In this document: piece by piece, positions 3,464-56,400 of the stretch
Layout: the number at the start of each line of letters is the position of its first letter
Numbering within the stretch: the first letter of the stretch is position 1
Assembly (NCBI GenBank): GCA_035352955.1
Contig: DAOPYQ010000001.1
Span: 101,536 to 165,535, forward strand
DNA length: 64,000 nucleotides
Direction: 5' to 3'
DNA from: Candidatus Omnitrophota bacterium
GTDB lineage: Bacteria; Omnitrophota; Omnitrophia; Omnitrophales; Aquincolibacteriaceae
Made by a program: the position numbers and the translations under genes
Notes under the pieces: generated by a model
What the model saw: only the letters and a program-made list of their open reading frames with translations
Databases searched by the model: none
Told to the model about the DNA's origin: nothing

Positions 3464-3472
3464 AGGGTTTCG

Positions 3473-4822: not shown

Positions 4823-4823
4823 T

Positions 4824-26900: not shown

Positions 26901-29900
26901 GCACTTAGCCTGCTCTTTGCCATTGAGGTCTTTCCGGATTTTAATGACATGAAAACATTCGCTCTGAATCTTTTCTCGATTCTTGAAAAGCGCTACGGGC
27001 CACTGGACCGGGAGGCTATGGTGGACGCGGCAGAGGATCTTTGGAACAGCATGTTCCCGGCACCGCGCGTGCGGAATTTCTGGACTACAAAAACGAAAAG
27101 CGAGTTTGAGGCATTTGACAGCCTTTTCCGGGACTTTGCGGCCTCGCTTGATGCGGCAAGGACGGCAGGAAGTGAGAAGGCTTATAAACAGGCTGTCACA
27201 CAATTCAAATTGCAGCTGCATCATTATGCGGGACAAAGGCAGGCCAGGGTTACACGGGGAGAGCCGCAGGACGCGCAACGCGCGGCACAGGGTACGCAAG
27301 GGGTAACGGAAGGGAAGTTGTGGGCGGAGAGGGCCGAAGACGGTTTGCGTTCGGAACTTCGCGTGACGCATCCTGACATTCGCGAAAGGATGCGTGGCTT
27401 GAGGCAGAAGATAGAAAACCAGGTCGGGGATACCGGAGCGTTCGGAGCTTATGTCCAACTGCTGGATTTGCCCCCTGCCGCCGCGAGGTCCCAAGTCATT
27501 GGCGATATCAGTAAAGAGCTCAAGAAACAAGCGCGAGCGATCGCGGACACGGTTACGGATCCGGACCCCAAAGTCCAGGAAACGAAACAGAAGACTTTGC
27601 TCGCGAATCTGACAGTGCTTGCGGTCCTTCAGACCATCGACCGTAACGCGAGAAAGGCGGCTTCGACGGAGCCTGCGGGCGACAAGTTCTTCGGCCTGTA
27701 TGAGCGGGAAAGTTTCGTCGAAACGGCGTTCTTCACGCACATGACGGTTTCGCTGAGCAGTTTGCTGAAGGACCTTGATCCCGACTATATCGAGGATGAA
27801 GAACTGCGGCTTTTAACTTTCAAGATCCAGACTTACTTCGGGCTGGAAGCGTTTTTTAAAAGTTCGCCGAAGGTCCATTTCCGTCCGTGGTTTAGCAAAT
27901 TCCTGCTCAATTACATTCTCCGTGAACGTCCCGAACTCGCGCAGGCCCTGTATTCTCTGAATCCGGATCAGAGCCTTGTGGGGCTTCTCGAAGACTGGTC
28001 CGTTGAATCCAAGCTCAAATTCCAGGAGTGTCCGGAGATTACGATCCTGCGGGACATCGTGAAGCGCTACCAGTTCACGTTCCGGGATTTTGTCAGCAAG
28101 AAGAGCGGCCAGCCCTTCGATGAGAACGAGGTCTCGGAACAGTACCAGGGCGACCTTGAAATGCTCATGGAAGACGAAACCGTGCGCGGGCTGATCCAAC
28201 GGGATCTCCGGGGGCTCCAGGATATCGTGACGATCATGCTGACGGAAGGCCGGATCGAAGCGGAAAAGGCCAAAAAAGAAAAGGGCGGCAAGGACGACGG
28301 GTACGGCGAAGTTCGGTACATCCTGGAACAGATCATCCCGAAGGCCCTGCCGAAGATCCGGGAGAGGCTGAATAACGCGGACCCTCTCGAGATCCTTGAT
28401 GCGATGGCGAGCATTGTGCAGGTGGCGAACGGGGAATTCTCCGCGTTGATGGGCAAGTTGCTTGGGGCGCACCCGCGGATCGGGGACAAGTATTCCCGTC
28501 TGATCGCGGGCAACGTCCAACGCCTCAAGCAGATCGGACTGATCCTTGTGGCGGTCGGCGAGACCGGATTTGACCAGATCCCGTTCGATAAACTGGTCGC
28601 ACGCTACAAGATCGTAAAAGGGAGCGACGCCGAAGGCCGGCTTCTCGAGATCATCGCGAACATCGCCCGTTCCGCGAAGGAAGGGACCGCCGGACTGATC
28701 GAAGAAACCTTCGATCTTTACAGCCAGGAGGCCGGCGAGACGTTGGACGACCTGAACAAACTGCTCCGCGCGTTCAATTATTTCGTCAGGATCGTCAATT
28801 TTCACTATGAATACGAAAAACTGGTCCTTGCCGGCGAGGTCGGCCAGATCAATAACGAAACTTATTTCGTGAGCTTGCGCGACCTCAAAAAGACCCTGCA
28901 GATCGTACGGCGCAACTTCAACGCAGGCATGGACATCAAGGAAGCTGCGGCCGATGCGGTGAAACGCCGCTATTACAACCGTCTTAGTCCCGAGGACCGC
29001 GACCGCGTGCGGGGCCTTATGATCTCTCACAGGATCATCCATCCCCACGACGAATTGAAGTTCAGTTATGAGGTCCAAGGATACGAGGTCGGCAGCCGCG
29101 AGATCGTGATCACGGAGAAACGGCCGCCGTATCAGATGCAAAAGAAGGACCGGGTGACGGGGCAGCTCTACATGGAAGAGATCCAGGTCGGGAAGCCTCG
29201 AGAGGTCATGCGTATTCAGTTTAAGGAACCGCTGGAACCCGGAGACGTCGATCCGGACATCATCTTCAACGAAACGACCTGCCGGAATCTGTCGGCGGTG
29301 CTTGAGGCGCTGGAGGTCAAAAACGGCGAAAAATTCAATCCCGTGCTGGAATTCGGGACCACGGCCGGCGGCAAAAGCACGATCGCCAAGCTCGCGGCGA
29401 AGGTCCTCAGGGTCGGTTACACCCGCATCCAGATCAACGAACGCACCGACGAGTTCGATCTGTTCGGGTCCTTTCAGCCGTTCGAGATCAACATGGAGCT
29501 GGGCGATGCGATGGAGCGGATCCGGGAAGCTCTCGATCGCGGGGAATACAACGCGCTTGAAGATGTCCTGAGCCGCATGTTGACGGGCGGAGAGGGGAAG
29601 TTCTGGGAACGGTTCTTCAGCGAAGAAGAACGCCGCGAGATCCTTGCGGGACAGGAGGGACTGGACCTTCACGAAGCCAAACGTCTGGCGATCCAGAAAC
29701 GTGTCCTCGCCCGCGTCGAAAATATCCTCGCGCAGGCGCGAGAACTTTTGCCGTTGGAACATGCGCCTGCCCAGGACCCGAAAGCGGCGGAACGGATCCA
29801 ACTCGTCAAGGCCATGGCGTATATGCTCAATCATGAAGTCGGGCTCCGTTACAAGAAAGGGCGTTTTCTCGAAGCTTACGAAAAAGGTGACCTGATCCTT

Positions 29901-32900
29901 CTTGACGAGGTTAACCTTGCGAACGAGGAAATGCTCGGCGTGCTCTACCAGCTTCTGACGATGGGGTATCTCCAGCACGGTGGCAAGGTCGTCGAACCGG
30001 CGTCCGGCCAGAAAGCCCGTATCCTGGCGACGGCGAACCCTTCAAGCTACGGCGGTCGCAACCGGATGAGCGAGGCGTTCATGAACCGGTTCGAGATCAT
30101 TTATATCGATTCGATGACCGATGAGGAAATGGCCGAGATCCTGGAAGGGACCGTTCATAAAGACCTGATCGCTTCCGGCCGGTATGCGGCGGCGGACTTC
30201 AAGAAACGGGAGGGAGAAACCCCTGCCGAGTGCCGGCAGAGGCTTGACCAGATCCTGCTGAAAGAGATCGGAGTGACACGTTACCATCTGACGCTTTTGG
30301 CCCGGGTCCAGGACAAGATCAACGGCGCGCTCCGCGGCGGGAAATTCATCGGGATGGGTGCCGACGCCGATTATGTTTTTACGATCCGCAATTATTTCAA
30401 TTTATACAAGGACCAGATGGCCCGTAAAAAGCAGGGGCAGACGCTTAGTCTCGAGACCTGGCTGCGCGAAGCCTTTATGGAATACGGGAACGTCCTGATG
30501 CGCACGAATACGTATCTCCTGAATCAGCCGGAACTTTTGAAGGAAGAAGCCTCTTACAAGACGCTTCGCAATATTTTCGGGCTCACGATCGGGGATCCGA
30601 TCCTCGACCTTCCGTCGCTTCAGCATCCGCGCGAAGGCCCTGCCGCGGCGGACGGTACCCCAACGGTGCGGTCCACCCTGCGGCCCGAAAATGCCCATGA
30701 AGCCTTTGATGAACTGGTCGCGAACTGGTTCCGCAAGATCGATTACGAATATGACCGGGCGACGCATACGCTCCGGATCGACGGGCTTACGATCACCGGC
30801 CGGACCCTCGAGGAACGGAAACTGATCGAAGAGCTTATCGAAACGGAGTCCACCAAATACAGCCAGATCGCGGTCCTGAAGGCACTGCTCCTGAACGAAC
30901 CGCTTCTGAACGTGGGCCAGTCCGGCGGAGGAAAGACCGAATCGATCGGGGATATTGTCCAGCGCCTCGGCCGCAAGTACGTCACGGTTTCCCTCGGAGA
31001 CGCGACGCTTGAAAGCCTGCTTGGGAACATGGAATGGAATCCGCGGGAAAAACGTTTTGTCTACGTTCCGGGGATCCTCGTCAAAGCGATGCAGGACGGA
31101 TCGGCGCTCGTGCTTGAGGAACTGAACATGGCGAAGTCCGGCGTGATCGAGATTCTGAACGAATATTTTGACGAAGGGACCTTCACCAATCCTTTTACGC
31201 TCGAGAAGATCAGGGTCCATTCTGATTTCCGGTTGTTCGCGACCATGAATCCTGTGCAGGGTATGACGGGGCAGAATGGCGGACGCGTGAGCCTTTCTCC
31301 GGCTCTCCGCAACCGTTTCCGCGAAGTATGGGTGCCGCACGAAAAAACGGATGCGGAAATGCGGGAGATCCTTCAGGGGCGTTTTGCTCAGAAGAATATC
31401 CAGGTCGGGGATGTTTCGATGAAGAAGATCCTCGCGTTCTTCCACGCGTATCAGGAAGCGTTCCGTTTCCGCGGCGAAGCGGCCTACTATACGAGCCCGC
31501 GCGACCTGACGCGTATCGTCCGGATCATGTCCTATCTCATCACCGTCTGCCATATGGATGAAGAAAAAGCCCTCTCCCGAGCGGTGCGGCGCGTGTACTT
31601 TGCCAAGATCGCGAAAGAGGAGGACCGGAACGATGTCCGCAAACTGATCGCCGAGGCAAAGATCCCGTCCGGCGAGATCCGGGCGCCTTCCTACCGGTTT
31701 TCCGAGGACAAACGTTTTCTTGAGGCCTACGATGGCCAGGAACTTGTCGCGCGTTTCGATGTGACCGCCCACCGGTCCCGCCTAGAAAAGATGATCGAGG
31801 ACGAGATCGGTGAAAACGATCCCGGCATTTCCGGAGAGGCGCTCCGCTCGCAAACGAAGTCCAAACTGGAACAGGCACTGAAAGAAGCGACGCTGGTTGA
31901 GAATGCGCACACGATGGAGAATCTGCTCGGGCTCATAGAGGCCGTTGCGATGGACGATCAAGATGTCCGGCAGGGAAAATTCAACCCGGTCCTTCTTCTT
32001 GGCGAAACCGCAGGAGGGAAGACCTCGCTTGTGAAATATCTTGCCGTGGCGATCCTCGGACAGGGGTACACCCGCATTCAGATCAACGAACGCACCGATG
32101 AGCTGGACCTTTTCGGTTCGTATGAACCGCGTGAAATGAAGATCGGAACGGACGATGCGGTCCGGATCGTCCAGAACGCCATCGAAGAAAAAGAGTGGGT
32201 CAAGCTCAAGAAAGCCCTGCAGATGTTGAGAAAGGGGTACGCCGGCGAGGATGAATTCGACCGGTTGCAGGATCCCGAGCGGATTTTCGAGCAGCTTGCG
32301 GCAGAGGAAACGGCCGCCCGTGAAGAGATCTTCCTGTATCTCCGGCAGGCCGTCTCGGATGACGCTGATCCCCAGAGTCGTGACGCGGCGATCCACCGGC
32401 TCAAGGTGATCGCGTATCTCGTGAAAAACGGGGCGATGAGCGTGGAAATGGAGTTCCGGGAAGGGCGGTTCCTTTCCGCCCTGAAACGCGGGGATTTTAT
32501 CGTGCTCGACGAGATCAATCTTGCGAGCGAAGAGTCGATCGCCGTCCTGTACCAGTTCCTCACGCTCGGTTTTGTGGAATATTACAACAAGGACGCCAAA
32601 GATGAGAACGGCAATCCCCACCCGCGCGTCGAGAAGATCTATCCGCCGGCGGGAATGAAACTGGCCGCGACCGCGAACCCGTCCGGTTACGGCGGCCGCA
32701 ACCGTCTCAGCGAAGCGCTCATGAACCGTTTCGAGATCCAGTACCTGCAGAACATGTCGCCGGAACAGATGAGCGAGATCATTATGGGAGAAAGCGCCCG
32801 CAAAAGCGTTTTCGCGAAAAATACGCGGTTGGCCGGCACGGTCCTGAAACTCGCCAAGCTTCAGCGGCAGATCAACTTGACCCTGGGAAGCGACGCTAAT

Positions 32901-35900
32901 CCTTTTCCGTCCGTCGGTTCGGGGCAGACGCAGGGATATCTGTTCACGCTCCGGGACCTGAAGCGGATCATGCGGAGCGCTGAAGAGATCCTTAGCCAGG
33001 GGAGCCGTTCGCCACCCGAGGCCCTGGTGGTCCAGCAGGCGTACCTGGAATATCTCGGCGTGCTCGGCCGAAGCGACGACGAAGTGAAACATCTTCTCCA
33101 GATCTTTAAATTCCCAGAATTTTTCCCGTCGTTCGATCCCGACCAGCTCAATCTCTCGTTCGAGGAAACCCGGAACGCCCGCGGCCGGAAGGTCATCCGG
33201 ATCGGCGGTTTCGAGATCGAAGAGCGCGACTATGACGGCAAAGGACCCTCGAATGAAGCGGACGTCATTGAAGCGCTTGAGGAAGGTCCGCTGACCAATT
33301 TGATCCGCATTGCGATCGTGAAAGGTCTGTTGGACCCACGAAGCCCCGTGATGGCGGTCGGCCAATCCGGCGGCGGGAAAACCGAAATGATCGGGGATGT
33401 CTGCCGGCGGCTCGGATGGAAATACCGGTCTGTGTCGCTCGGGAACGCGTCGCTTGAAAGGTTGATCGGAGGCTATGAGCGGGATCGGGAAACGAAGATC
33501 TTCCGGTATATGGTCGGCGAACTGGTTCGGGCCATGGAGGACGGCGCGGTCTTTGTGCTTGAAGAAGCCAATATGGCGAGTTCGGGGCTCGTGGAAATCC
33601 TGAACGAATATTTCGATGAGGGAACATTCACCAATCCTTTGACGGGGCGGAAGGTTGTGATCCACAAGGATTTCCGCCTGTTCGCCACGATGAATCCGGA
33701 GGTCGGTGTGACCGGGTCGAATGCCGGCCGCGTGGGATTCTCCCCGGCGCTCCGGAGCCGTTTCAAGGAGGTCTGGGTACCGCACGTCAAGACCTCCGAC
33801 GAGACAAAGCGGATCATTCGTAAAAAATTCACAAATCAGAAGATGAAGGTTTCCGACAAGACCGTTGAACAGCTTTATTCGATCTACGAGATGTTCCGAA
33901 CCTACGTGGAAGGATTCAATGATGAGACCGGTCTGTTGCATCCCGCCCGCATCGGCCAGGTGAACAACGAAGGCTACTACACCAGCTTGCGCGATATGGG
34001 AAAGATCGCGGACATCATGGTCCAGGACATGCGGCGTGGCGTTCCAGAATCCGAGGCTCTCCGCTATGCGGTCAAGCGTATCTATTATCTCCGGTTAAAT
34101 TGCGAGGAGGACCGAAAGGTCGTGCGGGAAGAGATCCTTGCCGGTCTGGACATGACGCCGATGGAATACCGATGGAGCCTGGAGGGGGCCGAGTATGTGA
34201 TCCGTCGCGGTCCGATCGAAGTGGCCCGCGTGTCCGCCGAGCTTCTCAAGAAAAAACATTTTGTCCTGACGGGTCCCGCGAAAGAAGAGATGGGTTTTCT
34301 GATCGAAGCGATGAGCCGCGGCCCCGGGTTCAAGCGGTCGTTCAATCCTGTCATGCTTTTCGGTGAAACGAGCGGTGGCAAGTCGACCATGATCGAGATC
34401 GCCGCGCACATTTTCAGGAAGAAGTTCAGACGTATCCAGATCAATCAGCGGACCGACGAATACGATCTCCTCGGAAGCTATCATCCCGTCGAGATGAAGC
34501 TCAGCCTGGCGCGCAGCCTCGAGGTCTTCCAGGAGAACCTCCGGAAGAAGAACTATTCCAAGATCGCGAAAGCGCTCCGGGTCTTGAAGAAGGACGTCCG
34601 GCTCTCGCTTCATCTTACGGAAGATGAGAAAGTGAGCGATGCCGAACTTTTCCAGCGCTTCCTCGACCAATACATCCTGCCCGGCGTGAAGCGAGAAGAC
34701 TCTACCGTCATCGAGGAGGCCCGTAAACTCGCGGTCCTGATCCATAACGGAGTGGCCGGTATCGACCTGGTCCACCAGACGGGATTTTTCCTTGAAGCCG
34801 TCGGGAACCGGGACGAAGGGATCCCGGGCCGGATCGTGCTTCTTGATGAGGTCAACCTTGCCAACGAGGAATCCATCGGGCTTCTTTACCAGATCCTCAC
34901 GCTCGGTTATATGGAATACCAGGGCAAGCGTATCTATCCCGGCGACGGCTTCCAACTCGTGACGAGCGGCAATCCGTTCACCTATTCCGGCCGCAACCGG
35001 ATGAGCGAGGCGTTCATGAACCGGTTCGAGATGCATGTGATCCCGGAGATGACGCCCCAGGAAATGGTCCAGATCCTTTGGGAAGGTTATGATCTGCAGG
35101 CCAAAGGGATCTCGCAGAACGCCTTGCAGGAGATCGTCGCCCTGCAGGTGAGGATCCATGAAGAAAGCATGAAACACTCATTCGATGGGTTCAATCTGGA
35201 CAACACTTACCGTTTCACGCTCCGCAACCTTGAGAGGATCGTCGAAGACGCACTGAAGCGGAAAACCGTCGAATCTTCCCGGAGCGCCGACGAGTGCCTC
35301 TGGGTCGAGGCCTACATCGAATACGCCGGGCTGCTGAGCCAGTCGAACGAGGATGACAACGCCGAAAAGAACAATATCGCGACGCTGAAAGGCCTTTTCC
35401 ACGACACCTTGCTCCGGGAAGGCTATGCCGTGCTGGGCAAGAAGATCGAATCGGGCAAAAAAGAAGAGCTGGAAAAACTTCTCGGCGTGCTCGGGATCCT
35501 GACTGAAAAAAAGACGGTCGACGATATGAAAGCGCAACTTAAGGAGATCCTCGCCTGGTCCCTTGGCGGCAATCTCGGGGCGACCTTGCAGGTCCTGAAG
35601 CTGGTGGAGGCCGTCACGGGCAAGCCTTATCAGCCGTGGTATCCGGACAGGGATCCGCTTTTCATGGAATTCCGGAAGATGGCCGTGACGCAGGAAGGGC
35701 AGACCGAGTGGGCCGAACTCGGAGGGGTCCGTGTCGCGAAACTTTCGGCTTCCGAGATGCTCGAAAGTTTTCTTAAAGAATTCGGGACCGATACGGAAAG
35801 CGGGCTTTTGAAAGGACCGAACGGAGAGGCCTTGGAGGCTTTCGACGGGAACAGCCAGAAGTATATCTTGCAGCAGATCCAAGGTATTGCCGTCCGCCGG

Positions 35901-38900
35901 CTTAAGCAGGAAGGCGGGAATCTCAAGGATCTGTTGCGTCAGGAGGTCCAGAAATGGATCGCCGGGCAGCTGGAAGGTTTCCGTCTGCCGCCCGGTTATA
36001 TCGAAGGGCTCTTGCGCAAACATTTTTACACGCAGGCGGAAAGGATCGAACAACTTGTCGAATTGAGATCGACCCTGATCCCGCGCATGCAGATCATGAA
36101 AGGTTTCCGCGACGGTGGCGTGGTCCAGACGGAGGACACCGAGGGCAATCCGGTCGCGATCCACAAGTCGCGCCCCGTCAATGAGATCGGGCAGTCCGGC
36201 GGAGGGAAGACCGAAATGGTCGCCGACATCGCGCGGGAACTGAACTGGCCGTACATGTCGGTCGCGCTCGGCGCCGCGACCGTGGAATCGCTCGTGGGCG
36301 AATTCGTTCTGAACGACCAGACGGGCGCTTTCGAATTCCGGAAAGGGATCCTTGTTCGCGCGATGGAAGAGGGCGCGGCGCTTGTGCTCGAGGAACTCAA
36401 TATGGCCGAGAGCGGCGTGATCGAGATCCTGAACGAATATTTCGATCGCGGGGTCATGACGATCCAGGGCCGCAAGATCTCGGTGAAGATCCACCGCAAT
36501 TTCCGCCTGTTCGCGACGATGAATCCGACGGAAGGCCGTACCGGGAAGAATGCCGGCCGGATCCCGCTTTCGCCGGCCTTGAGGAGCCGGTTCCGCGAGA
36601 CATGGGTCCGCAGCGAGCGCACGAAAGCGGAGCAGTACCGGATGGCGCTTGGAGGCATTCGCGATCTTGTGAACGGTTTGATGGAACGCGGGATCCCCGA
36701 GGAGTCCGAGGACGCCATGGGGATCCTGGAAGAAAACCTGACGCGGCAGAAGATCGCCGAAAGGTCCGGTCTCCGCAATCTTCCCAAAGGGAGGGACAGT
36801 ATCGAGGACGGGGTCACGGTCGAAGCGGTTCGCCCCGTCACGGCGCGCCCGGCCGCGCGTTCCCCGTCCGCACCTGCCGTGAGCATGGCCGCTCCGGCCG
36901 GCGAGCCTGCCGTCAAGATCCCGACCAAAGGAGAATGGGAACGGCTGCACCTGGAGGAGAGGAAAAAACTTTATGAAGACACGTTCTCGATCATTACCGG
37001 AAAAGCGGACATCAAACTGGTGGCCGGCAAGGGCTGGTCGTGGGCGCCTGCCAGTCATGTTCTGACTTACGATGAAAAAGACATTGAGAACCTGAGCCTG
37101 AATGCTCTTCTCGGCGTCGGGATCCATGAAGCCATGCACCGTATCGGGACGCGGTACCTTTCACTTTTCTGGGAGTTTTTCGACGAGCACGGAATCGAGA
37201 GCCGCGTTTTCAATACGCTCGAGGACGGGCGCATCGAGAACTGGGGGCGTTTCCTTTTCGGCGGGGCCGCCACGCCTTTACGCGCGACTAATGACGAAGT
37301 CGTGTTCGGGAAAGTAAAAGACGTGGACGAAATGGTGGAGCGGTTTGTGTTCCGCCAGAAGGACAAGGAGGGCAACGTTGTCGAACTTTCCTACACGTCC
37401 GCGATCATTAACTTTTTTCTCTATCTCGGCAAACGGGGTTCGGATGCCAACGCTCCCGAAGTCATCGAAAAGTTCCTGAAGGCTTTCGAGAAACGGGACC
37501 CGCAGCTTCGCAGGGACCTCGCGGGGCTGCTTCAGGCAGGGTATTTTGGAGGCGGGCGCGACGAGGATATCCTGAACCCGCCCAACCAGAACCGGGTGTC
37601 GGGCGTTTTCTCTAAACTTCCGATGAAAAGGAACGAATTCGGGACTTACGAGTTCGACGCCAACCCGGCGGGAACGACGGTCGAGAATCTGGCGATCGAA
37701 CAGGGGATCATCATCCGCGAATGCATCATGCCCATTGTTTATAAATGGGCCGTCAAGGATCTTGCGGACGTTCCTTCGGGAAAAGGGAAAAAAGGTAAGG
37801 GCGGAAGGGAAGTTATCCCGCGGAAATCTTCCGGGGGTGGCGGGGAAGATGACAGCGATGGGGACGACGGGGGCGAAAGCGATGGGGAGAGTGAACCCGG
37901 CCAACCGGCTGATGGATCCCCCAAGGATTTCAAGCCTGGAAAGCCGGCAAAGGGCGGTCAGCCCGTGAAGCCGATGACCCCGGCGGAGTGGAAAGCGATC
38001 TGGGACAAGCTCTCCAACGAAGACAAGAAAAAGTTGACGGACAAGATCGACAAGGGCGTCGAGCACAAGGCCCAGGACCGTACGGCCAAGGATTCCAAGG
38101 ATTACCAGAAGGCCCAGCAGGACGCCGAGATCGGAAAGCCGATGAGCGAGCGCGATCGTTTGATGGGACTCCTCGGGCGTATGATCACGGAACTTTCGGG
38201 GTACCTGCGCGACATCATCCAGAATTCCGTCCGTCCGAAAGAGATCACCGGTCTCAAGCGCGGACGTATTGACGTCCGGCGTCTGATCAACTCCATGGCG
38301 CGCGGATTCACGGACATGCGGTTCTATAAGCAGCGGATCCTTCCGCAAAAAAAGAACGTTAAGTTCACGATCATCGTGGACGAGAGCGGCAGTATGTCCG
38401 GCATGGAAGAACCCGGCAAGAAAGTCGAGATCAATACGCCCCAGAAAGGGTACCGGACGCTGATGGGCGTGACGCTTCTCATGGAGGTCCTGGAATCGCT
38501 CGGGATCGATTTCGCCGTCCGCGGTTATCACGACACGACTTGTCTCCACAAACGGTTCAAGAACCAGAGGATCCCTTCGGACAAGAAAGACCAGTACCTG
38601 GAAGCGGGGCAGGATGCCGTTCAGGACGGCTATACGACGAGGCGGGACAAGGAAAGTTTGATCGATCTTCTCCGCCAGAGCATCGGTCGCGGCGGGAACA
38701 ACGAAGGGCCGGCGCTGGAAGCCGCGATCCGGGACGCCGGGGAGGCGGGCGGTGAGCGGCACTATATTATTATCCTGACGGATGGCATGGGCGATGAAGA
38801 GGCGATCAAAAAGCATGTCGCTCAGCTCCGGCAGGCGAATGGTATGGTGAACGGGACCAAGGTGGAATTGATCGCCATCGGCCTCGGGAACGATTGCGAA

Positions 38901-41900
38901 TCGGTGATCAACAATTACGGCGGACGATACTCGATCTGGCTCAAGGATGACGAGGTCCAGAAACTTCCGGCCGAACTCAAACGCATTCTCCAGGAAGTGA
39001 TCCGCGGTGTTTTTCAACCCGGCGCGCCCGGCGCGAACCGTTTTGAGAATATGGCCCGGGGCTTCAGCCTTGCCGGTGTGGCCGGCATGGTCGGCGCATC
39101 CCGCGTCCGTTCGGAACTTCGCGCTTCCGAAAAGGTCCCCTCTCTCTCCGGCGCCGAAGACGAGGGGCTTGGCGAAGATCAGAAAACATGGTTCCGTTCT
39201 TTGCAGTTCAGGAGTCCGGAGGAGCGTTCGGAACTTCTCAAGGTGATCCGGGACAGCCATTTTTATTATGAAGATCTGGTGGGCGAGACCCCGGGGGGAA
39301 GCCCTGATTTTCAATACAAGTTCGGGGATGGTCTGCCGATCCTTCAAACGTTTTGGGAATCGGAATCTTTTACAACACTTCCGGATTCGCGAGAAAGGAT
39401 CCTGGTCTTGAGGCTCTTTGACGGGATTTTGAATACCGGGGATTATTTTATGATCCAGCAGGCTGCCAGGATCCTGGAGCGTTTGGTGGGTCCTGAAATT
39501 CTCGGAAAGGTTACGGACCCTCAGGAAAGGGTCCTCGCCCTGGAAGTGACTGCGGATATCCTGGTCCAATCGAGCGTTTACAGTCCGTGGGGTAATACAA
39601 TATCCCGAAGTGAAACCGTTATGGATTCTTTCCTGTATTTTTTAAGCACCTATTATCCGGAGATAAATAAAAATTTCGAAAAGAACGCGGAAACTTGGGG
39701 CTTTTTCCGGGAAATCATCCGTGCGGGGTATGAGCCCGAGCGAAGGTTTGAAGAAACCAGCAGGGCTTTTGGCATGCTGGGCAAGTTAATGGACTTGGCA
39801 GGTTTTGAGCGGGTTGGCGGACCGGAAGCGAAAAAGAGGGTTCTGGGCGTTGTGAAAGATATCCTGGTTTATTCGCAGCCAGGATCCCAAGAGGCGTTCG
39901 AAGCTTTAAGGACCTTGCTTGGAGGTCAAGGTTTCGGCTCGATCCAGGATCCGGACGAACAGGGAGTGGTGCTTGAGATCCTTTGCGCCGTTCCGTTTCT
40001 GGCCCGCGAGCGGGCGGACGCGTACTTCCAGAGATTCGATCAAATGCTTTCATGGGCTTCCGGTGGGGCCGCGAGCTTTCATGAAAAACGTTTTAGGGAG
40101 ATCCTTCTCGAGTTTTCTTCCCGGCCCCGGTCTGCCGAAGCGGCAGAGAACGCCTGCCAGAAGATCATCCAGCTGGCAGATCAAAGCGCAGCCCGTGAGA
40201 CACGAGGGGAACAAAGCCCGGTTCCCGAGCCTCAAGCCCTGCTTGCCGGCAGGCAAAGTTCTGTTCTTGAGAATAAGGAAGGGAAGTTGTGGTTTGAAAT
40301 TCCAACGACGGATGACGGAGATCGGATGGCGGAGGACGGACGGCTAAAGGCAAAAGGTTTTTCGACATCCGACATCCGTCCTCCGCAATCCGTAAGCGAA
40401 GATGTCAGCCGCGCAGAGCGCAACGCGCAACGCACAACGAAAAACGGAGATTCAACGTTGACCGTTGCGCGTGGCACGTCGAACGCGGACGAAATCCGCC
40501 GTGCCGAGCTCCGCATTTCCGGGATTCCTATGATCCCTCTTGACCGTTACCAATGGTTTAATGCCGATACAAATGAAGAGCATAAGGCCGAGCTTCGCCG
40601 GAAAGTCGCCTTGCTTGAAAACGAACTTCGCCGTTATCAGGGGGATGAACTTAGAGAAGCTCTGCGTTGTTTCAAAGACTGGTTCGCTTCAAAGGATTGG
40701 ACCGCCGCCGGGGTGGATTATGAGCAACGATTAAAGATGCTGGAGATTGCGGTGAACCTGCAAATCCATGTTTATCCGGGAATGGTCTATAGTGATGGAA
40801 GGCCTGCTTTTGACCATGAGAAGCTGAAGCCTTTCTCGGCTTTTCTGAAAAGCGACGCCTTTCGGCAGATCGTCGATCCCGCCGAGCGGCAAAGGGTGTT
40901 CGGCGTGCTCGCGGACATTCCTCCGCGTGCCGGGGATGCTGCGCCTAAAGCTTTCAAGGCCCTGGAAGCGTTTCTTGGCAGAGCAGGGTTTTCCGGAAGG
41001 GTGGACCCTTCGGAAAGAACGCGCATGCTGGAGGTGTTCCGGCAAACGGTGCTGGATATTTCGAATAAAAATGTGAAAGGTGATGCGTTTGCGGGGCTTG
41101 AAGCTCTGAATCGCATCAAGGCCGTTTCGGATCTTGCGGATCCGGCCAGCTTAAAAAAGATATTCGATCTTTTTTGGGAGATCGGCCGCACGCGGGATTA
41201 CTGGAAATGTGACTCTTTCGAACCGTTGGCGCAATTTCTCGCCTCGGATGCAGTACGCGGGATCAAGCATTTCGAGGATCTGTGCGCAATTTTTGACATT
41301 TGCAAAACACTTGTTGATTTAGGGATCAAAAACCGGGCGGCGGCATTCTGGGGTCTCGAAGGGTTTCTCAGAACGCAGGATTTTTCCATGCGGGAGGACG
41401 CGGTTCTTCGGGGGATTCTTTTGAAAGAATTCTCCGGGATATTTGCCCTTGTCGGGAATGTTGGAGGTTACTATTCGGATGAGCGGTCCGGTGCCTTGGT
41501 CGCTTTGGGGGATTTTTTTAACAGAAAATGGGGATTTGAACGGCTCGAGACGAACAGAAAGGTGATCGATCTTTTGGGAATGATCTTGCCCGGTCTGGCG
41601 GATGAAGATGTGCGCGGATGGATCGAAGCGTTTGGCCTGGATATTTCCGCGATCAGCCATACGGAATCCCTGAAGGGAGAGCCTATGGTAAATATCCTTC
41701 AGGAATTTTCTCAAGGAGCGGAAAGCGTTACGGGAGCTGAGGAACGCAAGGCCTTGGCGCAGGCGGCGGCGGAGAAGATCCGGGCGTTGGCAGATCATGC
41801 CCAGGCGCGCGCGGCGCGCGGGGAAGCGCATGACGCGCAACGCGTCGCGAACGGCGCGCAACGAGGAGTCGAAGGGAAGTTGTGGAACCAAACGGCGGAG

Positions 41901-44900
41901 AGACGCAGTGAAGTTCGCTCGGGACAGGGGGAAGAAACTCAGAAAACGATCAATTTGAAGAAAAAAGATTGGTTGGGGCGGTACGACTGGTACAAGCGGA
42001 TCTCTTCGCAGGACGAGAAGAAACGGACCGGGAACCTTGTCCGGGACGTATCCCTTGAGGTCTGGAGATATGCCAGCCGGGAGAAGCCGACCAATTTCGA
42101 TCCTCTGTGGCGGTTGCTTGGGAGCGAAGGATTCGGCCGGATTACGGATTCGAAGGAGCGGGAAGAGCTTCTGAACGTTTTTCTCAAGATCATGAAAGAG
42201 ATCTTCGAAAAACGGTATGTGGACGAAAGAGCGAATCTGGCCTTTCCCAAAGAGAATAAAGATCATGCGCTTGAAGCGTTCGCGTCATTTCTCGGCAGTT
42301 CGGCGTTCAGCCGGACCACGAATCCGAAAGAACGGTTGAGAATGCTGGGCCGTGCCCGGTCGATCCTGATGCGGTTCGCGCAGTATGAGCCGCATGACCG
42401 GACCGTCGCTTTATCAAACCTCGAAGAGTTTTTCAGGAGCAATGGTTTTAACAAGGACCTGAGCCCGGCGGAGCAGGGGAAGGTCCTTCAGCTTCTGGGG
42501 ACGCTTCCTCAATATACCCGGGGAGGCCTTGATCACGCTATTTTGGCTTTGTGGGTGATGATCGAAGGCGCGGGTTTTTCGGGGATCATGGGGTCCGGGG
42601 AGCGGATCATCGCGTTGAAGAAGTTCGGTGCTACTGCGGCCGGATTGCCGCGGTATGAAAAAGCCGGGTGGAACGATGTGACCCGCCGGGGGACGGAATG
42701 GGAGGTTTATGCGGCTTTGCGGGAATTGCTTTCCAGCGGGTATTTTAACCGGATCAAGGACTCTGCGGAACGGATAAAAGTGTTCGACGATTTTGCCGCG
42801 CTGGTCAATATCGCTGCGGTGGGTAAAGAGGAACGGCCGGACCTTGTGCTGGAGGTTTTTCGACATATTTTTCAGGGCGCCTTGTTTACAGAGACTGCAG
42901 ATCCCGGTGAACAGAGGATCGTCTGGGGAATCCTCCGGAAGCTCGCGGCGTACCGGAACGCTTACCAGGTAACGGATGATTTGGCGGATCTGCTGAACGG
43001 TGACGGGCTGAAGGCCGTGGTCCTTCGCGAAGAAAGAGCTTTGATCTGGGAGATCATTAAACCGCTCGCACAGGATGCCGAAAAAGACGGCGGTTGCAAT
43101 TTCTTCCGGGCTCTCAACACGCTGCTTTCCGGAAAAGGATTTCAACAGACGAAGGCCCCGTCCGAACGGTTGGGGGTCCTTCGTCTTGCCGGCCTGCTTT
43201 TAGATCCGGAAGATGACGAGATCGATCATAAGATGAAAGATCTGTCGGAGGCGCTGGTAGAACTTCAGGACGCATTGCAGGAGGGCGTAAGAACGGCAGA
43301 CCTTCCGGCGCTCTTGTCGGATCTTTTTGAAAATGCGGCGTACGTTCGTAGCAGGAAAGAAAAACTAGCGTTGGCGGTGAGCGCATGGCGGCAGATCATC
43401 CAGAGCGCATCTCAGGGCTTATCCCGTATCGATCGCGGGGAACCGCAGGCCGCGCAACGCGCAACGCACACCCCACAGGGGCTGGGCACAGGACGCCCTG
43501 GCGCGCAACGAGAAGAGGAAGGGAAGTTGTGGCTTGAAACGGCAAAACCGGAGGACGGAAAACGGATGACGGATGGAGTAAAGCCTGGTTTTTCGACATT
43601 CGACATCCGTCCTCCGAAATCCGTAAGCGAAGATGCCAGCCGCGCGGAGCGCAACGCGCAACGCACAACGAAAAACGGAGATTCAACGTTGACCGTTGCG
43701 CGTGCCGAGGTCCGGGGCGGGCGGATGCCAAAAGAAAAAGCTTTCGATCAAGTCAAGCGGATCGCGGCGATGTATCAAATGATGCAGTCCAGTTCGGAGA
43801 ACAAGGTTCCCGGGACCCTTTCGCCGGATAATCGCTACTATATTCCTTATCTGTCGGAGCGGGTGATCGATATCCTGACGGGGCAGGAACTTCCGCTTTC
43901 CAAACAGCTTTCATTTGCCCGTGCGAGCGAAACGGTCTTTTCGAAGGACGGGCGTTTTCTGGCCGCAGTCGATTGTTCATCCCCGCTATTTCCATTGAGA
44001 AAGCCGGGGATCGCGGAGATCTACGATCTTGAGACCCTGCAAACATCGGTCGCCCGGCTCCAGAGCAAGCCGCTACGAGAGGATGGGCGCCCCGTGTGGA
44101 TCTCCCGGGAGAACCGTTACCTGGTCGTCCACTACCTTGATTCCACCACAGAAGTATTCAGGATCGAACCCGGCGCGGCAGAACTCACGAAGGTTGAGGG
44201 CCTTGGTGAGAATGTGTATGAGATGGATATCTCAGAGGATGGTACCTGGTTTCACATGCCTTATTTTTTAAGGGACAACAAAGCGCGCTCGATCGATCTA
44301 TTGAACGGTAAGGAATATCCGGTTGCGGCGGGGCGGACAGCCGAAATCGTTCCGTGGCGGTACGGAAGCGCGGTCGTCTTCCTCCCTAAGGAACACGGAA
44401 ATCCGATGCGGCTTCTTGACCGGAAAACCGGGAAGGATATTGCCGATCAGGTCGGTCCTTATTCGGGCGTGGTTGTTCACTCGCCGGACGGCAGGAAGCT
44501 ACTTCTCCGCGGAACGGGGCATGCGCTCAACCTGGTCGTGAATGAGAACGGCGTCTGGAAGAAGACAGCGCTTGCACTGAAGACGAGATCGTCGACGGAG
44601 CCGGTCGCGGTCTTTTCGGAAGACGGGCGCCGGCTTGCCGTCGCGGACATCGAACCCGGTTTTATTCTTGTCTACGATGCGGACAAGACGGACAAAAATC
44701 CGGAGCGTTACTCGATCTGTCCGACCCCGAACGAGATCTTTTTCCCGGAGCGGATCGTTTTTGTGGCGGGGCAAAAAAGACTGCTCATAAAGATCGGCGT
44801 CAAGGGGGCCATCCGGAGCCCGCAGTGGCTGTACGCGTCTCTTTCACGGGAGAACGTCGCGTCCTCCTTTTGGATTACCGATAAAACTCATGACGGTGTT

Positions 44901-47900
44901 TACGGAGAACCTGCGCCGGACGGGTCCTGGATCACGCTGCAAAATCACTCACGCGATCCTTTTGAGGTGTACGACGTCAGGCGGGAGGTCAGCCTCAAGC
45001 TTCCGTTTGAAAGCCGATACGTCAGCGATGTCCGTTTTTCCCCGGACAGCCGGCGTATATCATTCGAATCCCGGGATCCGGATGATCTTGGGCGCCGTCA
45101 GGTTATTGACCTTGAAGCGTTCCGTGAGAACGGTTTTCTTAACAAATTATCGCAGACGGAGGAAGGCCCGAGTCTCCTGTTCCTGCTCTTCCGGAACGGG
45201 TTCTTTCAGCGCCAGGAGGCGGAGCCGTTCTTCGAATTAATGAAGGGGCTTCATCGGCCGAGGTTGGTCACACTGCCTCTCATGAAGTTCTTCACGACCT
45301 ATTATTACGAGAAAGAAGTGCCTGCCTATGTGGTCCGGGCGCCAGGAGTCCCTTTTGCCGACATTGCGGAAGCAATCGGGAGATTTTCGGAGGAAGCGCT
45401 TCGGGTGAAGGCAGAGTCAGGCGAACAAGCCGCAGTCCGGAATTTTGCGGCGCGTCTGGATCAATTCGAAGAACAGACCCTGGCCCGTCAGACGCGAGGG
45501 GAAGCGCAGTTGGTTTCCGGTCCTCAGGTCCCGAAGGTGGAGAGTGAAGGGAAATTGTGGTTTGAAACTCCAACGACGGATGACGGAGGTCGGATAGCGG
45601 AGGACGGAAGGCAAAAGGCAAAGGGTTTGACGTCCTCCGTCCTCCGTCCTCCGAAATCCGTAAGCGAAGATGGCAGCCGCGCCGAGCTTCGCAAGCTTCT
45701 GGAGGATCTCCGCGCGTTGGGGATCCGTGTTAAGGACTGGATCCTTTACCAAACGGTCTATCGATGGGTTTATTTTCATCCGATCATCAGGATCCGGGCC
45801 CTGTGGGCCGGGATTCTGAGCCTGGGAACGCGGGAAGGGCAGCTAAGGATTCTTTATCGATTCAAATACCGCCGGCAGATCCGCGAGATCCGGAAAGAGA
45901 TCTTACAATACGCGAAGGCGACGCACATGTTCAAACAGGACAAGGACCTGGCTCTCGGGGGATTCCGCCGGTTCGTGAAATACGGATTGGTCCTGGTGAA
46001 GGATGCCGCGGAGCGGGAAGAGCTTTTGGCGCTTTGCGCGCGGCTCCCCGGGCATTCCGGAAGCCAGATTTCCGTCGTTTGTATGCTTTTGGCCAGGGCG
46101 ATGGATCCCATCCTGATCCTTTTCCCTGGGCGTTCCGACCGGCATCGGGTCTTTCAACTGATCGAGAACCTTTCCCGGTACAGCGATCGTTCCTGGGGAT
46201 TTATGTCGGTAGCGCATTTGATAGAAGCTTTGGAAACGATCGTGGAATCTCAAAATCGGGACCGGAGAGAAGCGCTGATGCGGTACATGGAAGAATTCGG
46301 TCAAGAGACTGCCGGGATTCAGGATCCCGAGGCGCTGGAGAAGACATCTTTGCGCACTTGTCAAAATATCCTTCAGCTGGCCGATCAGGCCGATGCCCGT
46401 CAGACGCGGGGGGAGCCGCAAGGAACGGGACTCGAACCTTCCGCCCCAGGAGCGTCGGCGGACAGGCAGAATCCGGGACTCGGAGAAAAAGAAGGGAAGT
46501 TGTGGTTTGAAACGGCAAAACCGGATGACGGAAAACGGATAACGGATGGCGTAAAGCCTGGTTTTTCGCCATCCGAAAGCCTTCATCCTTCTTCCAAAGA
46601 TGACGGACGGCTCAAGGCAAAGGTTTTGACGTCCTCCGACATCCGTCCTCCGTTATCCTCCGCCGACGGCGGCGAACGGGCGGAGATCCGTAGCGCGGTG
46701 CAACGATCTACGGAGAAAGCGGTATTAGAAGCGAAGATCTTGTCCGCTCGGAGCAAGATTTATCGTTATTCAAGGGAGCATTTTAATTATGCCGGGGAGA
46801 AGGAATCCCAACTGGTGCGGATGGATGACGAGATCCGAAAATTTTTGATGGCTTTCAACGGCGCGGCGGAACGGAAAGCCCTGTTGGAAATATTGCAGAG
46901 CCTTTTTCGCTGTTGGAAAAAGGATGAAACTATGAATCCCTTTGCTTTATGGAGTGTGATCGCCACCTGGAATGCGGCATTGTCGGTCTATCCCGAAGGC
47001 GTGCTGCGGGGCATGATCGCAAGATTCATAGAAATCTTTTCGCAATATTTAGAAGAGGTGTCGGGGATGGATCTGGATATTACCGGATTTAAAGATGCTT
47101 TGATCTCTATTCATGGCGCAGCTGCCGATGGCAATGGTCCCTTGATGGCGGGTGTTTTTTCCGAGTTTTCTGAGGATGCGGGAGGGTTTTCCGATGCTCC
47201 GACAGCCGCAAAGGCTGTGAAAAGGGTGTATCAAGAAGTTTTCCGTGTGCTTGATCAAATAAGCTCCCGTGCGGCGCGGGGAGAAGCGCAGCCGGTTCCA
47301 AGTTCCCAGTCCCAGGCCCGTGAGGACAAGGAAGGGAAGTTGTGGCTTGAAATTCCAACGACGGATGACGGATCCCACGGGACTGCTTCGCCGGATCGGA
47401 GGACGGAGGACGGAAGGCTAAAGGCAAAGGGTTTTCCGACATCCGACATCCGTCCTCCGAAATCCGTAAGCGAAGATGGCAGCCGCGCAGAGCTTAAAGC
47501 GCAGCGCACAACGAAAAACGGAGCCCCAACGTTGACCGTTTCGCGTAGTACGTCGAACGCGGACGAAGTCCGCCGCGCCGAGCGGCGTTTCAGTGACGCG
47601 GAATATGCGACGGCGTATGAGAAACTCAAGTATTTCACTTCGATGGGGTTTGGGGCGCAGCAAGTCGCGGTCTCGGAGCACCTTAGGCGGGGAGTTGTGG
47701 AATACCGAGATGGGAGCGTCAGGGTTTTTGATCTTGAGACCGGGAAGGAGGGCGCGAAGCTCAACCTTGGCCCGGAGAGGGATCACTTGAAGATCGCGCC
47801 TAACGGTCGCTCCATCGCGGTCAAGTATAAGGACAACCGGTGGAAGATAGTCAGTTTGGAGACCGGTGCCGTAGTCTTCAATTTTACACCGGAAGATAAT

Positions 47901-53400: not shown

Positions 53401-56400
53401 CCAAATGGTGTGCTACGCGGAGGAGACAAGTGTCTTCAGATTGTTCGATACAAAGACCGGCCGGGAGCCGATGATCGAGTCCGGCAAGGCGCTTGCCCGG
53501 TTGAAGGGTGCCATCATTGAAAAAGTATCGGAATCTCCGGATGGCCGGTATTTTTGTGTGACCTATCGACGAGCTTCAAAGGGGTTGAAATTCCTGTTGA
53601 TCGACGCTGAAACCGGGAAAGAGAAACTTCTGCGTGACGGGAGGCGGTTTTCTCAGGTTGCCGGGAATGCCGGGAAATGGGTTTTCCCGGAGAATGTCGG
53701 GCTGCTTTGGAGCGTTGAACGCGGGCAAATGTTCGATATCGAGACGGGGGAGAAATATGAAGTGGCCCCGAAATTGATGGGCTCCGGGGCTTGGGCGATC
53801 CCTCGAAATATCACGGGGGCTTCTCTGATCGGGCCAGCGTATGGGATTCTTTTCTCCGTGGATGTTCTTGAAGCTGAAAAAGATCGCATTCTCAGGGCGA
53901 TGGATCCGGGAGCTTTTCAGTCGCTCGCTCTTTTGAGTCGGATGGGGATGATCCGGGACGCTCGGGAATTGAAAGCTCTGACGGCGCTTTTCCAGGGTGT
54001 TTCGGAGAAAATGAACAACGTCTGGCCGGTTGCGGTGGCCAAATTGTGGGAACAGTGGACGGGGAATGAAAAACAAGAGCAGGAATTACGCGGTATGCTG
54101 GAGGAGGCCCGTAGCCTTTTTGAAAGCAAAACTACCGAAAGTGAAAAATTTGAAGTTCAGCAGGATCTTGGATTGAGTTTGGATCAATGGGCCGGCCAGA
54201 TCGCTTCACGCAAGTCGCGGGGAGAACAGCAACGTGCGCAACGCGTCGCGAACGGCGCGCAACGGGGAGAGGAAGGGAAATTGTGGCTTGAAACTCCAAC
54301 AACGGATGACGGAGGTCGGATGACGGATGGCGTAAAGCCCGGTTTTTCGACATCCGCCATCCGCCATCCGTTATCCTCCGCCAAAGGCGGCGGCCGGTCC
54401 GAACTCAGGGAGGGCGACAAGTTTCAAGAAGACGGCGGGTTGCCGGCGGCGATCCGTACCGCTCAGGACAAGATCGCGCAATTGCTCCCCGAAACATTTG
54501 AAGTAGATAACGGTGGCGATTATGAAAGAGAAACACCGGACTATACGATCTATCCCAGGCAGGAAGCTTTGGCGAATTTCTCGGCGATGATGCGGACGGC
54601 GGAATTCACGGCGCTCACAGACGATGAAAAGAAGGTTTTTCTGAAGGCCCTCAGCGGACAATTTTACTCCTGGAGCGGGCTTGATTTTCGGGCTCAGCTT
54701 GAGGTCGTGAAACAACTTCTGTCTTCAGCCGATTTTCAGGCTTTGACGGATCCCGCGGAACGGGAACTGATCTTAAAATGGCTTGCGGATAAGCGTTTGT
54801 GGTTCCCCGGGAAAGGTTCTTTTTTAACCGGATTTCTCCAGACCCGGGCGTTCAGTCTCTCCCGGGATCAAAACGAACGGCTCTTGAACCTCGAAGTTTT
54901 TATCTTGCTGCACACGGAAGGTTTCCGCTTTTTCGGGGATTCGTGGAAGACCTTTCTGGATGCGGCGGAGGGATACCAAGGGATGGGGAGAGAACAGCGC
55001 CTCCGCGTTCTCAAGTTCGCGCGGGCCCTTCTTCTTCGGGAACAACGTTCCCGGAAAATACTCGAAATGGATGATTTCGGGGGTCGTTCGGGCCACCGCT
55101 CGCGGCTGGAAGCGCTTTTGAAATCGGGAATGGAATCTGTCCTGAGCCGGAAAGATGAGGCGCATCTGATTGCCGTAGCGGAGAAAGTTTATGAGCAGAT
55201 CGTTTTATTGAAAAAACAGGTTGTTGCCCGCAAAACGCGCGGGGAGGCACAGCCGGTCCCCGGTCCCCGGTCCCCGGTCTTTGGGAATAAGGAAGGGAAG
55301 TTGTGGCTTGAAACGGCAAAGCCGGAGGACGGGAAACGGATGACGGATGAAGTAAAGCCTGGTTTTTCGACATTCGACATCCGTCATCCGTTATCCTCCG
55401 CCGACGGCGACGGCCGGGCGGAACGGCGGGAAGACAAGGATCCCGCGCAGGCGGAGTTCAGGAAATTCGTGGAGTTTTTCGGATTCTGGAACGTGATGCG
55501 GGGGCAGGAGGGCAGTCAATGGATCGTGACGGAGAACGGACGGTACGCCCTGATCCATCAGAATCGGCGTTCTATCATTCGCCCTAATGAAGGATATTTT
55601 TTGATCAGGGATCTTGTGGCAGGCACGGAACGGATGTTCGAACCGGCTCCGGACACGCTGCCCTTGGCCGATGAGATCCGGCTTTCCGAAGACGGGGCGT
55701 GGATCTTCGCTACGGCATTCGGAGAGACTCAGGACCGGGGCCGGCTTTTCCGGGTGGGAGAGCCCGTGCCGTACAAGATGAAATTCGGTGAGGGTCTGCG
55801 GGACGGATTTTTTTCTCCGGACAGCCGGTATTTGCTTGCGGAATACAAGGATCATCACTTCCGTTTGTCCGCGACTGACCGTACGCCGGCGCCAAAATTG
55901 CAGCTGCCGGAGCGGATCCAGCGCTGGAAATTCTCCGCGGACAGCCGCTGGCTTTCCGTTGTCTCCGGCGGCCGGCTTTTCGTTTATGACCTGGTTGAAG
56001 GCGGGGAGCATTTCCGCTCCTCATTTCTGACCCGCTTCCGGGAGCCTTCTTTTTCCGCCGACGGGCAGTTCTTTTTCGGCCTGACCTCTTCGGCCACTGC
56101 GGTGCGGATCAGCGTTGCGGGAGACTCTCCCGCGGTTCGTCTCTTTTCCCGGGAAGGGATCTGCGGCGGCGGTTTTATCGGGGAAGGGAACAGGATCTGG
56201 ACGCAAGGCCGGATCAAACAAGATTCAACCTCCCTGGTCACGGTCTGGAGCGATCTCGGGAAAGAAGACCGGAATTTTACGCTGGACCGCGGGCTGTTGA
56301 ATCACGGTTTTTCTCCCGATGAACGATGGTTCGTCGCGAGTTATCCTGCCGAATCCGGTACGACGGCTCGTATTGTTCCCACGGGGCTCGGACCTTCCGG

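Follow-up and report, generated by a model that had tools for sequence, protein, structure and literature searches.

Two adjacent giant genes in a chromosome segment of a Candidatus Omnitrophota bacterium encode arrays of a helical repeat, which we consider likely to be an undescribed alpha-solenoid family with a 43-residue unit and a DPxE-R cap, carried in cassettes of giant signal-anchored proteins and probably serving as rigid spacer or docking modules. The segment, referred to below as the window, comprises 64,000 nucleotides (nt; GenBank assembly GCA_035352955.1, contig DAOPYQ010000001.1, positions 101,536 to 165,535 of the forward strand). As a sequence family the repeat is new and merits an entry of its own; as a kind of structure it is ordinary. 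The two genes are as follows (all positions are those of the window).

20904..50315, plus strand: gene 1, an intact giant open reading frame (ORF) of 9,803 amino acids (aa), identified by the ORF list, Pfam, a transmembrane scan and homology of its N- and C-termini to Omnitrophota loci.
50483 (ATG) to beyond 64000, plus strand: gene 2, a giant ORF with more than 4,505 aa in the window, running past the window end.

Gene 2 is a paralogue of gene 1, with an N-terminal domain 40% identical over the first 650 aa and with the repeat and the linkers between cassettes in common.

A first-pass annotation of this DNA had described dozens of units of a roughly 55-residue alpha-helical repeat in both genes, forming solenoid-like arrays of 1-3 kb at 40560-43380 and 57280-59700. 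The three peptides quoted there as examples all lie in the reading frame: gene 1 contains FSGRVDPSERTRMLEVF at aa 6696, and gene 2 contains both FRDPAERREIFRLLGDIP and SNDPAERRTILEMARQI. Taken strictly, the core [DN]P.ER is present just nine times in the two proteins. A hidden Markov model (HMM) of 30 columns, seeded on these nine sites and iterated at a per-domain threshold of E <= 0.05, converged on 36 units, and 38 units were obtained when a family-trained model was added (23 in gene 1 and 15 in gene 2, including 10 within 40560-43380 and seven within 57280-59700). Local shuffles of both proteins (n=30) gave 0 matches at the same threshold, against 36 in the real sequence. The model built from gene 1 units alone found 13 units of gene 2, and that built from gene 2 units alone found 14 in gene 1. 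The presence of dozens of units in both genes is thereby upheld.

The period proposed initially has to be revised. Tandem spacings in the window range from 42 to 58 aa with a median of 47, and across all family members a spacing of exactly 43 aa is the modal one (15 of 38 cases). The unit is a 43-mer with occasional insertions, which are irregular within the arrays and reach up to 15 aa. The unit consensus is AFxxLGxLLGSEGFxRITDPAERxKILEIhxxIPxYAKxxxxx, and conservation extends beyond the cap to helix A and the G-F turn, over about 35 columns in all; overall, the units share about 17-30% identity. No DNA-level tandem repeat was detected in the arrays by Tandem Repeats Finder, and the repeat copies are therefore old and diverged. 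A single weak DNA repeat family of 45 nt (D13) covers the motif core.

Prediction of the structure of a unit block, proposed by the first-pass annotation as a check, gave stacked helix units at a predicted local distance difference test (pLDDT) of about 80 with AlphaFold2 (AF2), in agreement with the alpha-helical nature then claimed. The model of gene 2 aa 2717-2905 (189 aa) reached pLDDT 79.9 and a predicted template-modelling score (pTM) of 0.72, with all five models at 72-80. The model of gene 1 aa 7118-7600 stayed at about 80 pLDDT over its first 400 residues, in which about eight stacked helix pairs (aa 7118-7517) are predicted, with a long helix closing the modelled array at its end. 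In both models the unit consists of helix A (9-13 residues; AFxxLxxLLxS), a helix of 4-6 residues (GFxxI) and helix B (13-20 residues), which starts exactly at the motif D-P and carries the conserved Arg after D-P-x-E. In addition to G-F and D-P-x-E-R, the conserved residues are hydrophobics spaced i, i+3/4 and i+7 in both helices. D-P-x-E corresponds to the classical helix capping box, in which Asp or Ser is at the N-cap and Glu at N3, here with Pro at N1; DPxER would form a helix cap and an Arg ladder. About 6-8 units (300-500 aa) are predicted to stack as one separate domain. Between arrays, exposed positions and inter-unit loops differ, and the core and cap positions are kept.

Stacked helical arrays do lie in the two regions noted initially, but they are separate cassettes of 1.0-1.5 kb with linkers in between. 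Gene 1 has further cassettes at 22941-25199 and 39156-40190, and gene 2 has others at 59936-60961, 62084-63391 and 63617-64000. The arrays are listed below.

22941..23945 (aa 680-1014), plus strand: gene 1 array 1, N-cap IDLSRYLWF, with recognisable units starting at nt 23058, 23502 and 23661.
24150..25199 (aa 1083-1432), plus strand: gene 1 array 2, N-cap DEYPWF, units at nt 24270, 24429, 24708 and 24864; a paralogue of array 5 (29% identity over 445 aa).
39156..40190 (aa 6085-6429), plus strand: gene 1 array 3, directly after a weak VWA match, units at nt 39168, 39339, 39471, 39777 and 39903.
40422..41804 (aa 6507-6967), plus strand: gene 1 array 4, within the region noted initially, N-cap LDRYQWF, units at nt 40830, 40959, 41223 and 41334, plus degenerate helices.
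41919..43421 (aa 7006-7506), plus strand: gene 1 array 5, within the region noted initially, N-cap GRYDWY, units at nt 42102, 42276, 42417, 42549, 42714 and 43110, plus two degenerate units.
54410..55225, plus strand: gene 2 cassette in which a single unit is recognisable (nt 54704-54793); it is paralogous to the C-terminal half of gene 1 array 5.
57245..59731 (aa 2255-3083), plus strand: gene 2 helical region, probably two arrays, units at nt 57260, 57623, 58229, 58358, 58640, 58766, 58922 and 59051.
59936..60961 (aa 3152-3493), plus strand: gene 2 helical array, units at nt 60062, 60485 and 60644.
62084..63391 (aa 3868-4303), plus strand: gene 2 helical array, units at nt 62348 and 62762.
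63617..64000, plus strand: start of a gene 2 array clipped by the window end, with a single unit (nt 63761) and 85-87% nt identity to 59829-60300, of which it is a recent duplicate.

Six arrays open with a cap motif of the pattern L-x-R-Y-x-W-F (Y-x-W-F core), the four of gene 1 given above and RKYGWFW, which is found twice in gene 2; similar motifs are present in relatives (IDLEDYEWF, INLNQYDWF). Whole cassettes are paralogous, with 24-29% identity over 420-480 aa, as exemplified by gene 1 aa 7176-7600 against gene 1 aa 1092-1502, gene 1 aa 6096-6523 and gene 2 aa 2716-3160. What was duplicated as a unit was therefore the array, with or without its linker.

Successive cassettes are separated by a linker of 38-99 aa, of which 17 copies were identified, all with invariant RGE and EGKLW. 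The consensus is ARxTRGExQxAQR...EGKLWxETAKPxDGxRMTDGVKPGFSTSDIRHPxSxSxxGxRAExR, in short ARxTRGE...EGKLW...GVKPGFSTSDIRHP...RAExR.

23946-24149, 25200-25403, 27243-27362, 40191-40421 (ARETRGE...EGKLW...GFSTSDIRPPQSVSEDVSRAER), 41805-41918 (a short copy, ARAARGE...EGKLWNQTAERRSEVR), 43422-43652, 45483-45692, 46395-46691, 47265-47498 and 49248-49466, plus strand: the 10 linker copies of gene 1.
54206-54409, 55226-55429, ~57000-57200, 59732-59935, 60962-61168, 61880-62083 and 63392-63616, plus strand: the seven linker copies of gene 2.

The sole copy that was modelled, 43422..43652, is predicted by AF2 to be disordered (pLDDT < 40, model residues 400-483). Arrays of 300-500 aa joined by disordered linkers are not the continuous long rods that had been suggested. 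The same linkers flank cassettes of differing kinds, helical arrays as well as beta-propeller modules. As a side candidate, PGF-CTERM sorting was considered for the 'KPGFSTS' of the linker and was rejected, since no transmembrane helix follows it.

The distribution of the repeat was examined with a 35-column unit profile, which was run by exhaustive HMMER against all 1.84 billion representative proteins. A total of 14 representatives were obtained at E <= 1e-3 and five at 1e-10. The true carriers among them are P0001 (7,743 aa), P0002, P0003, P0004 (1,637 aa), P0005 (6,366 aa, a giant multi-enzyme protein from a JGI metagenome), P0010 (3,326 aa) and P0011 (a fragment of 76 aa). The other matches, P0006, P0007, P0008, P0009, P0012, P0013 and P0014, are unrelated repeats with only a DP-x-ER-like cap in common. 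The clusters of P0001-P0005 have 1-2 members each, all from JGI or ENA metagenomes. With about seven true carriers in this collection, the description of the repeat as lineage-specific is supported, and the restriction is extreme. A word-indexed search of 5.8 billion proteins with the region noted initially, the cassette alignment and a 64-unit alignment gave no match. When metagenome contigs were scanned with the cassette alignment, 39 stretches matched by pattern, none of which was confirmed by tblastn.

Every carrier with its N-terminus present, namely P0001, P0005 and P0010, has the same 'IQDAH' N-terminal domain. This domain of about 650 aa (VLIQDAH...AQENI...LVALEGA) covers aa 40-700 of gene 1 (21021-23003) and 50600-52400 in gene 2. 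P0001 is 53% identical to gene 1 in this domain, and also has the same C-terminal domain and the RGE...GELW linkers; P0004 shares the C-terminal domain of P0001. The C-terminal domain of about 280 aa (gene 1, 49461-50312) is 48% identical in the locus L005. No match was found for either domain in Pfam or NCBIfam, nor for the N-terminal domain among PDB sequences. The motif of the N-terminal domain recalls the Tiki/ChaN superfamily, but an identity as a Tiki/ChaN-like protease finds no support in the Pfam, NCBIfam and PDB sequence searches. A scan of GTDB with the N-terminal domain detected 14 loci at 26-41% identity, 13 in metagenome-assembled genomes (MAGs) labelled Omnitrophota or unnamed bacterium and one in Elusimicrobiota; the Omnitrophota assignment rests on 13 of the 14 homologues. 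Depending on the locus, the middle region between the N- and C-terminal domains can be as short as about 600 aa or exceed 8,900 aa, and the middles of related proteins have no or isolated Pfam matches. Neither the repeat nor the RGE...GELW linker was found at the 14 loci, nor were internal repeats in their long ORFs. Within a single family of giant proteins, the repeat is thus limited to a narrow subclade.

The first-pass annotation had found no obvious match to HEAT, TPR, Sel1 or PBS-lyase repeats, and had named a confident match of a unit HMM to an established family as the outcome that would refute its proposal. No such match arose in the comparisons made, in which sequences were run against Pfam, profiles against the sequences in PDB, and some pairs through hhalign. 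With seven repeat blocks taken in isolation, no repeat family was detected in Pfam even at E <= 10 (HEAT, HEAT_2, HEAT_PBS, TPR, Sel1, ARM, TALE, PPR and PUF) or in NCBIfam at E <= 1, and the whole proteins gave no match to Pfam HEAT, HEAT_2, HEAT_PBS, TPR or Sel1 at E <= 0.1. Against all PDB sequences, the unit profile matched only designed proteins, via 'IEDPEERRRVLEEARKIAE'-type caps. The cassette profile gave designed helical repeats as the best matches (E 8e-4 to 0.06); HEAT proteins were non-significant (E 0.5-0.7). Neither AF2 model had a Foldseek match in PDB at E <= 1e-3; the best matches were again designed helical repeats, headed by 5cwp (DHR79; template-modelling (TM) score 0.47/0.41, probability 0.97, E 0.18), and DHR76 and FD15 were also found. 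No ARM or HEAT structure, including those of the beta-catenin/importin type, was among the top 50 Foldseek matches for either model.

These results bear directly on the most serious alternative, by which the repeat is a highly diverged HEAT/ARM repeat, a member of the ARM/HEAT clan that has drifted past profile detection and binds proteins in the usual manner. We regard it as unlikely. The known periods are 42 aa for ARM, 37-47 aa for HEAT, 34 aa for TPR and 36-44 aa for Sel1. TPR and Sel1, families with a small/large residue signature, are not supported (no Pfam match, period 43), and a period of 43 aa is within the range of ARM and HEAT; stacked helix-turn-helix units of 37-47 residues, as predicted by AF2, are however common to many alpha-solenoids and not specific to HEAT. 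After re-phasing, the predicted helix A, short helix and helix B resemble the H1-H2-H3 order of ARM, in which H1 is short. HEAT repeats have a conserved Asp/Arg pair, which the Asp and Arg at the turn and helix B of the new unit recall. Among the domains of giant Omnitrophota proteins, HEAT is reported to be the commonest (bioRxiv 10.1101/2023.11.21.568195), and the Pfam HEAT models do work in this lineage: the relative P0005 carries a genuine HEAT_2/HEAT_PBS region near its C-terminus (36.7 bits, cut-off 27.7), as well as an array of the 43-aa repeat (aa ~3100-3560) that these models miss and that has no Pfam match. The two are therefore distinct by sequence. In hhalign comparison with the HEAT region of P0005, the probability was 0.9% for the unit profile and 0.3% for the cassette profile, against 97% for the positive control, and with consensus sequences it was 0.3% for designed ARM, a value to be taken as a lead only, and 0.1% for TPR.

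It is highly improbable that the units form a code-type recognition repeat (TALE, PPR or PUF), in which successive units would each recognise, through a few variable positions, a single base, residue or sugar along a linear polymer. The units are modular with varying exposed positions, as such a code would need, but they lack a hypervariable pair, their period is 43 instead of 33-36, their identity of about 17-30% is low, and insertions up to 15 aa would break the register. Many TAL-effector chains appeared in the Foldseek list of the long model at E 0.1-1; their TM-scores are only 0.11-0.16, and they are absent from the list for the better model of 189 aa. Pfam TALE, PPR and PUF gave no match and hhalign 0.1%. 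That the motif is just a recurrent helix cap or low complexity in a charged helical region, with no homologous stacked repeats, is largely refuted and hardly deserves any weight, since, even though DP-x-E-R-type caps recur by convergence and the unit profile matches P0006, P0007, P0014 and designed proteins by the cap segment alone, the conservation over about 35 columns, the regular 43-aa spacing, the absence of shuffle matches, the cross-gene recovery, the paralogy of whole arrays over more than 400 aa and the single confident domain predicted by AF2 all speak for true repeats.

If the arrays are solenoids of a family of their own, selection would keep the fold via buried helix faces and caps, leaving exposed positions to vary between units as well as between arrays. 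The arrays would in that case be rigid spacers or protein-docking platforms, each with a surface of its own, strung on flexible tethers among neighbouring cassettes such as the AAA+ ring, VWA and beta-propellers. Several points weigh against this proposal. The structure is predicted, at pLDDT 71-80, from alignments of 10-17 paralogous rows that all originate from this window, and pTM together with the pattern of secondary structure is the basis on which solenoid geometry and the burial of conserved residues are proposed. Many array stretches have degenerated beyond recognition by the HMM. No conserved surface patch was found among paralogous arrays. The topology is also ambiguous: the N-terminus is signal-like (Sec signal or anchor), and arrays are located on both sides of a transmembrane cluster. 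Such clusters, each with 2-3 hydrophobic transmembrane-like segments, are at aa 1568-1625 (25605-25778) and at about aa 1989-2007 of gene 1 and at aa 3615-3673 (61325-61501) of gene 2, and the modules, including the ATP-dependent AAA block, may be on differing sides of the membrane.

The linkers differ markedly from the arrays in their mode of divergence. In the cassette alignment, amino-acid identity is 56% in the linker against 17.5% in the helical part, and identical residues are encoded by identical codons at 74% in the linker against 37% in the helical part. Nearly all DNA-level repeats of both genes outside the AAA region are linker copies, with 61-90% nt identity. The linkers were therefore homogenised or recently spread, unlike the arrays. 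A recent duplication of about 490 nt in gene 2 (D9/D11; 59829-60300 and 63510-63999, 85-87% nt identity) comprises a linker plus the first unit of the next array, and accordingly the peptide LWDFLGSEGFGHLSRAER occurs twice. The pattern fits recombination at the linkers as the route by which cassettes are duplicated and exchanged. It is also what strong constraint would produce if the linker were a linear motif for processing or binding. On this basis a bolder reading can be formulated, to which we assign a rather low probability: the linkers might be joints for homologous recombination that duplicate, delete and swap cassettes within and between the two genes, thereby diversifying an exposed surface protein, and might also, or instead, be cleavage sites or linear motifs that are bound by cassettes to build a mesh. 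If so, the new repeat would be more than a spacer, namely the principal variable payload in a bacterial system for surface variation or self-assembly.

Giant Omnitrophota proteins consist largely of 'dark' sequence. The immediate gain is that the repeat gives fold and domain boundaries to about 4,000 residues across two of them, and that its profile flags a very small clade of giant proteins. A lineage-specific alpha-solenoid alone is an expected kind of finding and opens no long-standing question; the organisation in cassettes with homogenised linkers is the part most worth following.

The window represents a bacterial chromosome segment, in which housekeeping genes (SecY, Mfd, SurA, PdxA, KsgA and enolase) are followed by the two giant genes. 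Omnitrophota are known for their giant membrane-anchored proteins, a hallmark of the group (bioRxiv 10.1101/2023.11.21.568195; 10.64898/2026.06.07.730766). Gene 1 is also called, at 9,803 aa, on the 103-kb contig Ga0116171_10000061 of JGI metagenome 3300009692, which was located via enolase. Long minus-strand ORFs over the arrays (41319-42266 and 42414-43145) were treated as shadow ORFs, and homology to P0001 and others backs coding on the plus strand. From its N-terminus, gene 1 is composed of a signal or transmembrane anchor, the conserved N-terminal domain, two helical arrays and the transmembrane cluster, followed by seven AAA_5 matches, a weak VWA, three helical arrays, beta-propeller modules and the conserved C-terminal domain. 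Besides the AAA_5 and VWA matches, Pfam detected beta-propeller fragments in gene 1; the whole gene 2 protein gave no Pfam match at E <= 0.1.

The seven AAA_5 (dynein/midasin-type) matches of gene 1 lie at 29300-36700 (aa ~2800-5230) together with AAA_lid_7 (midasin lid), and the weak VWA is at 38630-38900 (aa ~5911-5998), about 680 aa downstream of the AAA block. Together they suggest a midasin-like ATPase ring built within one chain, combined with a MIDAS-type domain, in a signal-anchored bacterial giant protein. The DNA repeats D6, D12 and D15-D17 in the AAA region reflect a threefold internal duplication with a unit of 2.3-2.8 kb. Two beta-propeller (WD40-like) cassettes of gene 1, at 43671-45503 (aa 7590-8200) and 47481-49253 (aa 8860-9450), lie between the same linkers as the arrays. 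P0001 is named 'WD40 repeat protein' in its source annotation, and several WD40-like stretches are present in its sequence.

Among known systems, the nearest neighbours in PDB, both by structure and by sequence, are computationally designed repeats (DHR76, DHR79, FD15 and derivatives; 5cwp, 5cwo, 8ugc and 5cwb), which is of some interest with regard to how much of repeat-protein space is used by nature. They resemble the new repeat in their idealised amphipathic helices with D-P-E-E-R-type N-caps. As artificial proteins, however, they share no homology with it, their units consist of two helices and lack the short one, and they were matched at marginal E-values. TAL effectors are likewise composed of two-helix tandem units forming a superhelix, but their units are 33-35 aa long, near-identical and marked by a hypervariable residue pair. 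ARM repeats are close in length (about 42-43 residues), and their three helices, one of them short, and superhelical stacking are akin to what is predicted here, but the conserved motifs of the new repeat differ and Pfam ARM does not match.

The likeness to HEAT (Pfam HEAT, HEAT_2, HEAT_EZ and HEAT_PBS) includes an alpha-solenoid of antiparallel helix pairs, a unit of 43 against 37-47 aa, an acidic residue at the turn with an Arg early in helix B, and the occurrence of arrays with a presumed scaffold or docking role in giant Omnitrophota proteins such as 'Archaeovorin'. The new repeat differs in a turn that is 6-7 residues longer and contains the short G-F-x-x-I helix, in a D-P-x-E-R box in place of the HEAT D-x-x-V-R, and in arrays that are separate cassettes, several with an N-cap motif, with a family-specific linker at their borders. 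Proteins of the Archaeovorin type are giant (at least 30,000 aa), membrane-anchored Omnitrophota proteins with HEAT/TPR scaffolding, AAA_5 and enzyme domains (bioRxiv 10.1101/2023.11.21.568195). A signal anchor, AAA_5 and beta-propellers are present here; the two proteins, at 9,803 and more than 4,505 aa, are below the size class of that report (West-Roberts et al. 2023). The scaffold role suggested for the new arrays would, by analogy, be the one that has been put forward for the HEAT arrays of other Omnitrophota giants.

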